64,000 bases of DNA from Christensenellaceae bacterium. GTDB lineage: Bacteria; Bacillota; Clostridia; Christensenellales; CAG-138. This document shows positions 30,186 through 62,520 of this stretch, piece after piece. Made by a program: the position numbers and the translations under genes. The stretch spans positions 4,594 to 68,593 of the forward strand of contig JAFLSU010000009.1 in assembly GCA_022510765.1 (NCBI GenBank), written 5' to 3'. A model generated the notes under the pieces. The model was given only the letters and a program-made list of their open reading frames with translations, was not told the origin of the DNA and made no database searches. Within the stretch, counting starts at the first letter, position 1. Each line of letters opens with the position of its first letter.

Positions 30186-30262
30186 TGGTGGGGATGAAGG
30201 GACTCGAACCCCCGACCTCTTCGATGTGAGCGAAGCGCGCTAACCAGCTGAGCCACATCCCC
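30186..30262 (-). tRNA. tRNA-Val(CAC)
   Basis: GGGGATGTGGCTCAGCTGG...CTTCG-CT-CAC-AT-CGAAG...GGTTCGAGTCC...CCA, 77 nt; promoter TTGCAA-N17-TATAAT at 30272-30300. Confidence 0.97.
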
Positions 30263-30950: not shown

Positions 30951-32146
30951 ATGAAAACCAAGTCCCTTGTGCGTATCACCGCGGCAGCCGCTGCATTGAT
31001 GCTCGTTTTCGCGGCTCTCCCATTCTCGGTGATCGCAGCGGAGGTGTACCCTGTAAATACACCAAATGGCTATAACGAGAACGACTATCAGAAGGTCAGG
31101 GTGTTCCTCGAAATCACCGATCCCGACGGCGTGAAGAACGGTAAAAATTGAGCGATGACTATGACCCCGATGATCCCTTGACATGGGGAGGAATCGAATG
31201 GACGCACAGCAATGGTGGCTATAGGGTTGAGCATATATATTGGAATGACTTTGCTCTTTATGGAGAGCTTAATTTGAGCGACTGCACTCAACTCGTAGGC
31301 CTGTTCTGTGAGGATAACTTTTTGACTGCCATAGATGTCAGCCATAATACTGAGCTTAAATCTCTTGAGTTTGCGTGCAATAGGCTGACAGAGATCGATG
31401 TCAGTAATAATTTAAATCTAAAAACACTAACTTGTTATTACAATCGTCTGACCGCTCTTGATGTCACTGCCAATACGCAGCTTGAGCATTTGAGTTGCAG
31501 CCTCAACGAGCTAACCGGTCTTGACGTTTCCAATAACATTTATCTTGAGCATTTGAGCTTCGATGAAAATCAGATCTCAGAGATCAATCTAAGCAACAAT
31601 CCTGCTCTTGAAGAACTGTTCTGCTACAAGAATCAGCTTACTGGGCTTGATTTGAGCAACAATACTTTGCTAATGAATTTTTCCTGTTGGGGAAATTTGC
31701 TGACCGAGCTTGATCTAAGAAATTGTCCCAACCTTCTTGCCGACAGCATCGTTGCGGAGGGCAATGGCTTCATCGGATGCAGCTTTTATTATGATTACGA
31801 TACTTATCTTGTGTCACCCACACTTGGTGAAAATGGAAGTTTCCTCGGCTGGTATGACACGGATGGAAATCTGCTTTCGACAGATTGGTCTTTTGATATT
31901 TTGGATTGCCCCGTTACCGACTTTGTCGCAAAATTTACTTCAAACGGCGATGCCCCTCAGAACGACGGAGACGTTGACGGCGACGGCGTCGCAACGATTG
32001 CCGATGCTATCTTAGTTGCCCGCAATGTGCTCGGCCTTATGGAGTTAAGTGAAACGCAGATAATTCACGGCGATATCGACGGCAACGGCGAGACTTCGGT
32101 TGCCGATGCGATCCTCATTGCACGCATGGCTCTCGGAGTGATATAG
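30951..32146 (+). pseudogene. secreted LRR protein with C-terminal dockerin, frameshifted in an A5 tract
   Basis: Signal peptide; 21-aa LRRs; duplicated GDVDGDG/GDIDGNG dockerin; frames join if A5 at 31143-47 were A6 (paralogue reads KNGEKLSDDYDPDD). Confidence 0.85.
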
Positions 32147-43603: not shown

Positions 43604-44890
43604 CTATGGCTGAATCAATCCCAATGCTATGCGCAGGATGATTAAAGCGTCAGCCGCAGTGACAACGCCGTCACCATTGACATCGGCTCGAGTTAGTTGC
43701 TCATCGGTAAGTGTATCAAGGCCAAGAGCACTGCGTAGAGCAATAAGTGCGTCAATTGTAGTGATCTCACCGTCACCGTCAACGTCGCCGGTTGGCGTCG
43801 GTGTCGGGGTTGGCGTCGGGGCAGAGGTAGGATCGGGATCATTGCCTTCGAGCGTGAATTTAGCGACAAAATCTGTAACCGAGCAATTCCTAAGGTTAAA
43901 AACCAAGTCCATTGAGAGCAGGTTTCCATCCGTGTCATACCAGCCAAGGAAAAAGCTTCCTTTAGCGGGCACTGCGACAGTATACCATCCCGAACCCGAA
44001 GTACCCCAACCATAGCAACTAATGAAGCCATTGCCCTCTGCGATTATGCTGTTAATTAAAAGGTAAGGGTTATTACTTAAATCCAGTTCTGTAAGCTGGT
44101 TGTATTCGCACCACAGATTCTTAAGTTTGGTATTGCTGCTGACATCCAGCTCTGTGAGTTGGTTGTTATTACAAGCCAGACCCCAAAGTGCGGTACAGTT
44201 GCTGACATCCAGTTTTGTAAGCTGATTGTGTCCGCAACTCAGAGAATAAAGTGTGGTATTGCTGCTGAAATCCAGCTCTGTGAGTTGGTTGAAATCACAA
44301 TACAGAGTCCTAAGTGCGGTACAGCCGCTGACATCCAGCTCTGTAAGTCGGTTATCGGAGCAAACCAGCTCTTCGAGTGCAGTACAGCCGCTGACATCCA
44401 GCTCTGTAAGTCGGTTGTTGTAGCAATATAGCTGGCTAAGTCTGGTACAGCCGCTTAGGTCAAGCTGCCCGTAGAGAGCTTGATCGGACAAACTTACATT
44501 CTTTATCCTTTTGCCGTCATCGCTGTCTATCCAAGCGATTCCTCTCCAAGTCGATGGATCATCTGGGTCATAATCATCGCTCAACTTTTCTCCGTTCTTT
44601 ACGCCGTCCGGGTCTGTGGTTTCAAGAAACGCTCTCAATTTTTGATATTCGTGCTCGTTATAGCCTTCGGGGGTCTTGACCGGGTAATCCGCAGGTTCGT
44701 TTGATGTGCTGTTTGTTGGAACAGCTGCATGGTTTTTCGCCAATCCGGCTATAGAATTGGCTATTGAGTTGGCTGCAGTCTTAATTAACGGATAGGTTCC
44801 TTCCGCGAGTGCCGCGAAGGGGATTGCCGCGAACAAAAGCATCAACGCAAGAGCGGACGCTATGACGCGCAGAGTTGTTTTGCTTTTCAT
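43604..44890 (-). CDS. secreted LRR protein with PT linker and C-terminal dockerin
   Basis: Signal peptide, 21-aa LRRs, PTPTPT linker, GDVDGDG...ADVNGDG dockerin; paralogue of 30951-32146. Confidence 0.9.
   Translation of the reverse strand: MKSKTTLRVIASALALMLLFAAIPFAALAEGTYPLIKTAANSIANSIAGLAKNHAAVPTNSTSNEPADYPVKTPEGYNEHEYQKLRAFLETTDPDGVKNGEKLSDDYDPDDPSTWRGIAWIDSDDGKRIKNVSLSDQALYGQLDLSGCTRLSQLYCYNNRLTELDVSGCTALEELVCSDNRLTELDVSGCTALRTLYCDFNQLTELDFSSNTTLYSLSCGHNQLTKLDVSNCTALWGLACNNNQLTELDVSSNTKLKNLWCEYNQLTELDLSNNPYLLINSIIAEGNGFISCYGWGTSGSGWYTVAVPAKGSFFLGWYDTDGNLLSMDLVFNLRNCSVTDFVAKFTLEGNDPDPTSAPTPTPTPTPTGDVDGDGEITTIDALIALRSALGLDTLTDEQLTRADVNGDGVVTAADALIILRIALGLIQP
44073..44460 (-). repeat. 63-bp tandem repeats encoding LRR units
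   Basis: gctgacatccagctctgt core recurring every 63 bp at ~44136, 44199, 44262, 44325, 44388. Confidence 0.85.
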
Positions 44891-44899
44891 CTGTTTTTC

Positions 44900-45298
44900 C
44901 TCCGAAAAAATTATTCTTTTGGGTGCAACTCGAAAGCTACAGCGCAAAACAACTGAAGCTCCCGTGTGAGTCGATCCCCGGCGGAATCGTAGGGCAGGAC
45001 AATGCCTGCCAGCAAATAGACCGGAGCGGCAATCCTTTTATGAATCGTCCCTCCGCGCTGTCCTGCGCCTACATATCCTTAGGAGAAACAAAACGCCTAC
45101 CGTGTAACAACATACACAATAGGCGAAAACCCTCTCACACGGGAGCCATGGCCTTCGCAAAAAACTTGAAAAGCTAATAACTCTACCGTATAATAGACTA
45201 AGCGTGCGCGGAATAAACCGCTGTGTATGTGCGTGTTCCACATATGCAGGTCGATGGGTGCGGCAACACCCTTCGACTGCCGCGTTTATTTGTTTCTA
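44900..45298 (-). ncRNA. ~410-nt structured 5' leader candidate of the LRR-dockerin gene
   Basis: 13-bp perfect long-range stem 44958-70/45134-46 enclosing several stems; G-U pairs favour - strand. Confidence 0.5.
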
Positions 45299-45304
45299 TG
45301 GTTG

Positions 45305-45333
45305 AGTATAATTCCAATTTTGGCGTTTGTCAA
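45305..45333 (-). promoter_or_regulatory. sigmaA promoter
   Basis: TTGACA-N17-TATACT. Confidence 0.8.
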
Positions 45334-45763
45334 CACCTATTTGGGATAATTTGGAAGAATAAAAGAAGTGAACGCCATTGACCTATAATAATATTGAAAT
45401 CAGTTTATAAGATGTATGCCCAAGAATCAGACCCGCAAGAATTAAGTCGGTTTGGGGTATTATAAGGTGCATGGGAAAGGATATGATGCAAAATCGGTTC
45501 GGAAAAGCAGCAGTTCAACAGCCGGGGAACCAAGAGAGATTCCGGCGGCAAAAATTTTTAAAACAACGCATGAACCAAGCAGGAAAAAAGGAAATGATGG
45601 AGAATAATGATAAATTGGGCAAGGATGGAAAACTTTTGTGTCTTGTACTCAGGTTCATCCTTCATTACCATATTTTGGTTGTGGTGAATAACGCATTTAT
45701 ACGTACATTTATGCGCGCATGTGTGCGGCATGAGTTGCCGCATAGTGCGAAAAGGAGGGCTTT

Positions 45764-62375: not shown

Positions 62376-62382
62376 GTACTTG

Positions 62383-62500
62383 AATATCTTCGGGGCGGGG
62401 TGCGATTCCCCACCGGCGGTAAAGCCCGCGAGCAATCAACTTTGATTCGCAGATCTGGTGAAATTCCGGAGCCGACAGTATAGTCTGGATGAAAGAAGAT
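62383..62500 (+). ncRNA. FMN riboswitch (RFN element)
   Basis: TATCTTCGGGGCGGGGTGCGATTCCCCACCGGCGGTAAAGCCCGCGAGC...AGATCTGGTGAAATTCCGGAGCCGACAGTATAGTCTGGATGAAAGAAG. Confidence 0.97.
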
Positions 62501-62520
62501 GGCATCTTTTTGAGATAATG

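Follow-up and report, generated by a model that had tools for sequence, protein, structure and literature searches.

The leader locus

The minus strand of the window, i.e., the complete stretch of 64,000 nucleotides of Christensenellaceae DNA that was analyzed, contains an LRR-dockerin gene (Pfam LRR_4, 2.5e-17; Dockerin_1, a type I dockerin, 9.5e-13) that is preceded by a long structured leader (Table 1). The promoter of this leader, P_S, places the inferred sense transcription start near 45298, and the spacer of its homologues is 17 nt long in all family members except one (16 nt). Downstream of a 5' domain with three hairpins, the sense RNA contains T1, a hairpin followed by UUUUGUUUCUCC that is terminator-like according to a terminator scan and is present in every complete family member. 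A perfect 13-bp long-range stem, the arms of which are separated by 163 nt, encloses T1 together with a branched region (domain 3), and is followed by a second hairpin, T2. The latter is a weak terminator at best; a U-run behind it is found only in the copies of the leader in this genome and is missing in relatives. The preliminary description of the locus, which was made from the letters alone, had listed the promoter, a hairpin at 45246-80 (P1), the long-range stem, the 13-bp hairpin and a TAGG...CCTA stem with a further arm. All five were recovered, the last one as the TAGGCGCAGGACA/TGTCCTGCCCTA stem of domain 3, in which 45071-45059 pairs with 45001-44990 (minus strand) and the inner arm is present.

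The predicted folding energy of the 421-nt sense RNA is -163.5 kcal/mol compared with -124.8 +/- 6.0 kcal/mol for dinucleotide shuffles (z = -6.45; none of the 100 shuffles equaled it). The opposite strand of the leader yields z = -5.22, and the sense 5' domain alone, z = -3.79. The leader matches no Rfam 15 family, whether the window is scanned in full at the gathering score or the region 44800-45500 at E <= 10. The preliminary description had found no T-box, SAM-I, cobalamin, lysine or c-di-GMP consensus; gathering-score and E-value searches with the copies in this genome and with distant relatives likewise produced no relevant match. Elsewhere in the window, there is an FMN riboswitch of the ordinary annotated type (RF00050, 119.4 bits, 62382-62504, plus strand).

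Table 1. Features of the leader and of the predicted antisense RNA gene (window coordinates)
Feature	Position	Strand	Description
Sense promoter P_S	45305..45333	-	TTGACA-N17-TATACT, 11/12 consensus matches
5'-terminal A-rich tract	45289..45297	-	AGAAACAAA; 9/9 inverted repeat relative to the U-tract behind T1
Sense 5' domain	45206..45284	-	Four-way junction P0/P1/P2/P3, complementary to the predicted antisense RNA
Hairpin P1	45280-45246	-	
Hairpin P2	45244-45226	-	
Hairpin P3	45221-45208	-	
Segment B	45231-45222	-	CACAUACACA, inside the sense 5' domain
Antisense promoter P_AS	45166..45194	+	TTGAAA-N17-TATAAT, 11/12
Predicted antisense RNA	45201..45296	+	~95-100 nt; three hairpins, closing G+C helix and tract GUUUAUUUGUUUCU (fold)
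Long-range stem, left arm	45146-45134	-	GCTCCCGTGTGAG / GCUCCCGUGUGAG; inverted repeat, 13/13
Terminator T1	45084..45125	-	13-bp hairpin 45125-45094 and U-tract; terminator scan
Domain 3	44978..45072	-	Branched and sense-specific; UAGGCGCAGGACA / UGUCCUGCCCUA plus inner arms
Long-range stem, right arm	44970-44958	-	CTCACACGGGAGC / CUCACACGGGAGC; inverted repeat, 13/13
Second hairpin T2	44929..44960	-	Followed by UUUCGAG; 3-4 nt in common with the long-range right arm
RBS and LRR-dockerin gene	43604..44903	-	GGAGG 44903-44899; ATG 44890, 428 aa, signal peptide

A dispersed cassette

The leader had been described as belonging to a single gene, but it is not unique: a DNA-level search of the assembly from which the window comes (58 contigs, 1.87 Mb) identified at least 10 copies of what we hereafter call the cassette. 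One other full-length copy, on contig C34 (76% identity), precedes another LRR-dockerin gene, a paralogue whose signal peptide is the same; four more copies are complete or nearly so and are located in other contexts; five 5' halves enter contig ends, and two 3' halves are found at contig starts (C2:13-127 and C56:4-173). Including the two latter cases, seven contig ends lie within the element (the other five are C16:1-182, C35:5-210, C7:6-219, C18:20729-20936, C50:4652-4782). Given that contig ends lie inside the copies, the repeat itself fragmented the assembly, so the copy number is a lower bound and some of the cargo genes are cut off. The five copies that point into contig ends raised the possibility of an rRNA-operon leader, which was rejected given that protein genes follow the complete copies and that the breaks are inside the element itself.

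Similarity between copies sets in precisely at the -35 box of P_S and stops after the leader, and the upstream flanks are unrelated. The cargo detected in this genome consists of two LRR-dockerin genes and two YpsA/SLOG-family genes (PF06908; C2:62600-63100 and C56:221-754). Two copies have no co-oriented gene and end with a terminator; the existence of copies that lack a downstream gene implies that gene control is not the sole role of the cassette. One copy is located between murF/ddl and ORFs that, by visual inspection, resemble a phage terminase large subunit and a portal protein (C10:21000-25700), and may mark the edge of a prophage. In three copies (C2a, C2b and C10; e.g., C2:52397-52500), domain 3 has a second hairpin with UUUUUGUUUC behind it, a duplicate of the T1 tail motif, which suggests an internal duplication of the terminator module. 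In the window itself, the LRR-dockerin paralogue at approximately 31148-32146 (plus strand) lacks the cassette, with no match to R1, a covariance model of the 5' domain; a tRNA gene (30189-30262, minus strand) lies near the second LRR-dockerin paralogue of the window.

Outside this genome, R1 identified the cassette in 10 of the 240 genomes of the same family, which represent 5 genera and carry 1-4 copies each, and R2, a model of the predicted antisense RNA described below, has matches in four further families of the class. In a pattern scan of the GTDB species representatives, the close carriers are ruminant-gut MAGs, namely RGIG and RUG 'Clostridia bacterium' genomes. In most of the relatives, the cassette precedes genes for secreted LRR proteins that share the N-terminal motif PEGYNxxDYxKL, and the additional cargo includes a CHAP-domain protein, a lipoprotein, an SF1-helicase-like protein and small unknown proteins. 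In the distant members, the RBS directly follows T1; the long-range stem, domain 3 and the second hairpin are an elaboration of this genus and one other. A plasmid or phage origin of the cassette was considered and rejected because blastn detected no match to it among plasmids (PLSDB) or phages (INPHARED). In one relative, tandem short hairpins with UGAUG spacers are inserted in the leader, outside the core (L049:1311-1382, minus strand; contig C39 of genome G009); a local search gives a sub-threshold match of this insertion to Rfam Gut-1 (30.2 bits against a gathering score of 50, E = 0.0007), and a second sub-threshold Gut-1 match is found approximately 1 kb from the first (L049 2352-2421).

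A predicted antisense RNA gene inside the leader

Alignment of the copies reveals two invariant blocks, ATTATA and TTTCAAG, that are 17 nt apart in 29 of the 30 elements and are separated by a freely varying spacer; read on the plus strand, these blocks constitute a promoter, P_AS, that faces P_S, such that the inferred start sites of the two are approximately 100 nt apart. P_AS is present in all 30 scorable elements, from at least nine genera (24 of these score 11/12, and 29 have the 17-nt spacer, which is variable in sequence). The predicted antisense RNA that would start from this promoter has a folding energy of -39.9 kcal/mol. Its 3' end looks like an intrinsic terminator: the complement of P1 and the G+C helix precedes that of the A-rich sense 5' end, which reads GUUUAUUUGUUUCU. 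The A-rich tract AGAAACAAA is also the template for the U-tail of the antisense RNA.

The antisense consensus derived from 24 sequences includes 26 base pairs, 11 of which changed on both sides, with 95.8% of the cells paired. None of the 500 shuffles performed as well, in terms of either the pairing percentage or the covariation score, and sliding the partners by 1-3 columns reduces the pairing to 31-54%. Among the non-Watson-Crick cells in these helices, 94 are G-U on the antisense strand compared with 5 A-C. Because the sequences are phylogenetically related, these and the other counts given here overstate the independent support; in addition, each consensus was derived on the strand that it favours. 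Two near-invariant G-U pairs of the antisense RNA extend P2 to 10 bp, where the sense RNA has A-C mismatches. The folding energies point in the same direction: over the first ~100 nt, the antisense fold is the more stable one in 18 of 18 representatives (-45.7 vs -35.8 kcal/mol for the sense strand), whereas over the remainder of the leader, it is the sense fold that is better in all 18 (-100.7 vs -81.3 kcal/mol), with 9-23 G-U pairs in the sense folds against 1-8 in the antisense folds. The asymmetry between the strands flips sign at P_AS. The preliminary observation that G-U pairs favour the transcribed strand accordingly holds downstream of approximately 45165 but not in the first ~100 nt, where the opposite strand is favoured.

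The two promoters, the two RNA structures, the strand asymmetry, the conservation and the covariation are all features of the sequence itself. The arrangement is that of a countertranscript attenuator: the opposite strand carries a predicted promoter within the leader and a predicted antisense RNA with stem-loops and a terminator of its own, and an intrinsic terminator, T1, is located downstream of the overlap and upstream of the gene. We conclude that the opposite strand of the leader carries a complete predicted gene for an antisense RNA of ~100 nt that most likely gates T1. The suggestion of an independent non-coding RNA that was made at the outset thus holds as far as a separate RNA gene is predicted inside the leader, but this gene is on the opposite strand.

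Pairings in the sense RNA

The 5' arm of T1, segment C (UUGUGUAUG), has segment B as an alternative partner. Segment B comprises the 3' strand of P2 and the junction, and the strand behind P3 often joins the pairing with the T1 arm. When the sense transcripts of 18 representatives were folded after truncation in the T1 loop, i.e., before the 3' arm exists, the 5' arm of T1 paired with segment B in 15 of them and preferred another partner in the remaining 3. The B:C pairs differ by subfamily (AUACACA:UGUGUAU, CCUACAC:GUGUAGG, ACCCUC:GAGGGU, CCAUGCA:UGCGUGG and CCUACAUAUGUA:UACAUGUGUAGG), and their duplex energies are hardly discriminating (-11.7 kcal/mol for the own partners vs -10.4 kcal/mol for mismatched ones). 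In the minimum-energy fold of the full-length leader, T1 is already formed alongside the folded 5' domain, so that the case for read-through in the absence of the antisense RNA is a kinetic argument.

The hairpin loops of the 5' domain are hypervariable. Among nine copies in this genome, there are 9 distinct P1 loop sequences with a mean pairwise identity of 0.28 and 7 distinct P2 loop sequences with an identity of 0.37; by comparison, the strands of the P1 stem come in 5-6 distinct sequences with an identity of 0.86-0.88. Such loops fit the specificity-setting kissing loops of antisense systems, in which a cis-encoded pair always matches itself, and they argue against an aptamer. The diversity of the loops could be selected, insulating the copies from each other, or neutral. 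The junction nucleotides (GCGGCAG, CCUGCAUAUGUG and CACAUACACAACGG) are almost invariant across genera, which is more conservation than a cis-encoded antisense pair needs, and could be a site for a protein or a ligand.

In every subfamily, the sense RNA begins with 9-16 nt that are the complement of the U-tract behind T1, even as the sequences differ; the longest case is a perfect 16-bp duplex (GGGGAAAAAUUAAAAA / UUUUUAAUUUUUCCCC). Here, the own pairs average -10.9 kcal/mol, compared with -6.0 kcal/mol for mismatched ones. The A-rich 5' tract is paired in the minimum-energy fold and covaries across the subfamilies, and the resulting helix could clamp together the two ends of the RNA, whether terminated or read through.

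The long-range stem was tested with per-sequence duplexes, since the register of the arms varies in the alignment (A2) and makes column-wise counts unreliable. Pairing is kept among subfamilies with different arms (CCGUGUGAG / CUCACACGG; CCCGAAUGUGUG / CACAUUCGGG; CCGAAGUGCGCG / GUGCGCUUCGG), and all arm mismatches examined by eye are G-U on the sense strand, which indicates that this stem is an RNA helix rather than a recombination site. Domain 3 varies in length from copy to copy and contains a compensatory change between copies (AGGACA/UGUCCU to GGGGCG/CGCCCC). The overlap between the right arm of the long-range stem and T2 may provide a second, weaker checkpoint.

Two further candidate features of the 5' region were rejected. 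A leader peptide that would start from the invariant AUG in CAUAUG has 48 codons here, but in the C34 paralogue a 1-nt indel in a loop brings a stop after 14 codons (manual translation), and there is no Shine-Dalgarno sequence before the CAUAUG start. The half-sites of a CRP-like operator, TATGTG-N7-CACATA, covary across genera as an RNA stem (AGGTG/CACCT).

A model of attenuation and its alternatives

We propose that the cassette is a portable, multi-copy chromosomal module that consists of two convergent transcription units and functions through countertranscript-driven transcription attenuation, a model for which we estimate a somewhat better than even chance. Under this model, P_S, a promoter of the sigma-70 type, would start a leader of ~408 nt that runs into the LRR-dockerin gene, and P_AS, approximately 100 nt downstream, would fire backwards to yield an antisense RNA of ~95-100 nt that ends at about the sense start. 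T1 would be the next element made in the sense RNA. During its synthesis, the 5' arm of T1 would pair with segment B to form an antiterminator, so that a naked nascent leader would read through; support for this B:C step is moderate. We further infer that the antisense RNA is made, binds the leader and shifts the choice to T1: starting from loop-loop contacts, it would pair with the first 100 nt and occupy segment B, whereupon T1 would form and transcription would end short of the gene. The opposed orientation of the promoters may bring about collisions that deepen the repression. In this genus, the basic layout would be extended by a sense-specific module, i.e., a long-range stem of 13-20 bp around T1 and the branched domain, followed by the second hairpin.

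An alternative that we consider unlikely, albeit not negligibly so, is that the antisense RNA acts by another route, namely promoter interference, cutting of the 100-bp duplex by RNase III, or action in trans as a family of sRNAs with targets elsewhere, with T1 being a constitutive partial terminator. The proximity of two strong convergent promoters (~100 bp apart), the weak covariation of the B:C antiterminator and the stand-alone copies without cargo genes are all compatible with such a route, and in the case of RnaG, the two effects, interference and attenuation, occur together (PMC2879508). Nevertheless, every subfamily retains T1 and, with differing sequences, its complementarity to the segment that the antisense RNA covers, and the loop sets are unique to each copy, which points to private targets in cis rather than to a common target in trans.

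A sense-strand riboswitch or a protein-dependent attenuator is, in our assessment, quite improbable. Here, the 5' four-way junction would be a sensor of a metabolite, a second messenger or a protein, occupancy would lock P0-P3, withhold segment B and let T1 form, and the promoter on the other strand would play an incidental or secondary part. The near-invariance of the junction nucleotides across genera, the excess stability of the sense domain (z = -3.79), the terminator/antiterminator logic, which is that of a riboswitch expression platform, and the coherent set of surface and accessory genes in the cargo all speak for such a reading. However, the G-U pairs of the 5' domain favour the antisense strand by 94 to 5 and the antisense fold is the more stable one in 18 of 18 representatives; all the hairpin loops are hypervariable, even among copies in the same genome; ATTATA-N17-TTTCAA, with its fixed spacing and free spacer, is the signature of a promoter rather than an RNA motif; and no Rfam aptamer matches the element. 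Neither conservation of a sense-strand aptamer nor a known riboswitch class was found. Thus, of the riboswitch-like regulator envisaged in the preliminary description, there remains a structured leader that is conserved and uncatalogued and that includes a promoter and a terminator of its own, but an aptamer for a small molecule in the 5' domain is unsupported given the invariant opposite-strand promoter, the antisense bias of the G-U pairs and the hypervariable loops.

It is highly unlikely that the cassette acts as a DNA-level element, i.e., an inverton in which a recombinase flips a repeat-bounded promoter/terminator segment or a MITE-like insertion. Inverted repeats do occur in two sets (the long-range arms, of 13 bp, and a 9-16-bp repeat made up of an A-tract and a T-tract on either side of P_AS and T1), the ten copies are dispersed, and six contigs are broken inside the element. 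However, all copies found (34 by our count, in 15 carrier genomes) have the same internal orientation; the arm mismatches of the long-range stem that were read by eye are G-U on the strand that is transcribed, which fits RNA pairing rather than recombination sites; inversion of the segment between the A- and T-tracts would keep a terminator (that of the antisense RNA) in front of the gene; and no recombinase is linked to the cassette. The contig breaks that fall just after the left long-range arm and the repeats that bracket the promoter had made an inverton worth considering, and the constant orientation, the sense G-U bias and the retained terminator led us to reject it. As for the MITE-like insertion that had been suggested initially, the cassette is a dispersed repeat, but its homology begins at the -35 box in one fixed orientation and the unit ends without terminal inverted repeats or target-site duplications, the flanks being unrelated.

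Comparison with known antisense systems

To our knowledge, transcription attenuation by antisense RNA has been known almost exclusively from plasmid copy control, pCF10 conjugation and the single icsA/RnaG case. The rep leaders of the plasmids pT181 (RNAI/II), pIP501 (RNAIII) and pAMbeta1 harbour the gene of a small, constitutively made antisense RNA, which has several stem-loops and a terminator of its own. Such a leader folds either into a pre-emptor or into an intrinsic terminator situated just past the overlap, and pairing with the antisense RNA favours the terminator. The cassette would share with these systems the leader-internal antisense RNA and the choice between antiterminator and terminator, both of which are predictions in our case. 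Unlike the plasmid attenuators, it is chromosomal, occurs in at least 10 copies per genome and has surface and accessory genes as its cargo in place of a gene for replication; furthermore, its antisense RNA covers the leader from the first nucleotide, and it adds the covarying helix between the 5' end and the U-tract as well as, in this genus, a structured module of ~190 nt. No sequence similarity to plasmids is detectable (PLSDB blastn).

RNA I of ColE1, which is ~100 nt long and forms three stem-loops, is the complement of the very 5' end of RNA II; kissing contacts between loops set the specificity, and binding redirects the folding of RNA II downstream. The predicted geometry of the cassette is similar to that of the RNA I/II pair with respect to the size of RNA I, the three stem-loops and the coverage of the 5' end, but the output of ColE1 is primer formation at an origin, whereas that of the cassette would be termination before a gene, with no origin or replication context. 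In the prgQ/Anti-Q system of the Enterococcus plasmid pCF10, convergent promoters reportedly yield an antisense RNA of ~100 nt that favours the terminator IRS1 in the nascent transcript. All three of these features, i.e., convergent promoters, an antisense RNA of this size and a favoured terminator, are predicted for the cassette. In contrast to the cassette, Anti-Q is cut from a longer transcript, and pCF10 is a single-copy plasmid system tied to pheromone signaling and a repressor.

In RnaG-icsA of Shigella flexneri, the convergent promoters are 120 bp apart, the antisense RNA induces an intrinsic terminator on the nascent mRNA, and transcriptional interference adds to the antisense effect (PMC2879508, in which pT181, pIP501 and pAMbeta1 attenuation is cited as the precedent mechanism). 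Like this system, the cassette has convergent promoters within a range of ~100-120 bp and an antisense RNA that would pair with the leader of a surface-protein gene. RnaG differs in that it is 450 nt long and is encoded in a single copy on the virulence plasmid of a Gram-negative bacterium, whereas the antisense RNA of the cassette is ~100 nt long and belongs to a multi-copy family; in addition, the terminator of RnaG-icsA arises only upon pairing, whereas T1 is a pre-formed, very stable hairpin.

Implications

The most far-reaching version of these predictions, to which we assign a low probability, is that the promoter, the private antisense RNA and the attenuator jointly comprise a widespread, previously undescribed plug-in cassette of rumen and gut Clostridia that acts as a bistable, RNA-based analogue of phase variation. 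The absence of both the antisense RNA and the leader from Rfam implies that the cassette is missed by annotation pipelines. Among orphan structured leaders that have been read as switches with unknown ligands, some may be resolved by checking for an opposite-strand promoter and for G-U pairs on the antisense strand. If the cassette does use antisense attenuation, this mechanism would be a general, portable wiring for accessory genes, such as those of LRR-dockerin and YpsA-family proteins, in uncultured rumen Clostridia. In the far-reaching version, the hypervariable kissing loops would insulate each of the at least 10 copies in a cell as a channel of its own, the face-to-face promoters combined with attenuation would make every copy bistable, and the covarying clamp between the 5' end and the U-tract would belong to the bistable switch. 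Clonal cells would thereby express differing subsets of LRR-dockerin and other surface or accessory proteins without DNA rearrangement.
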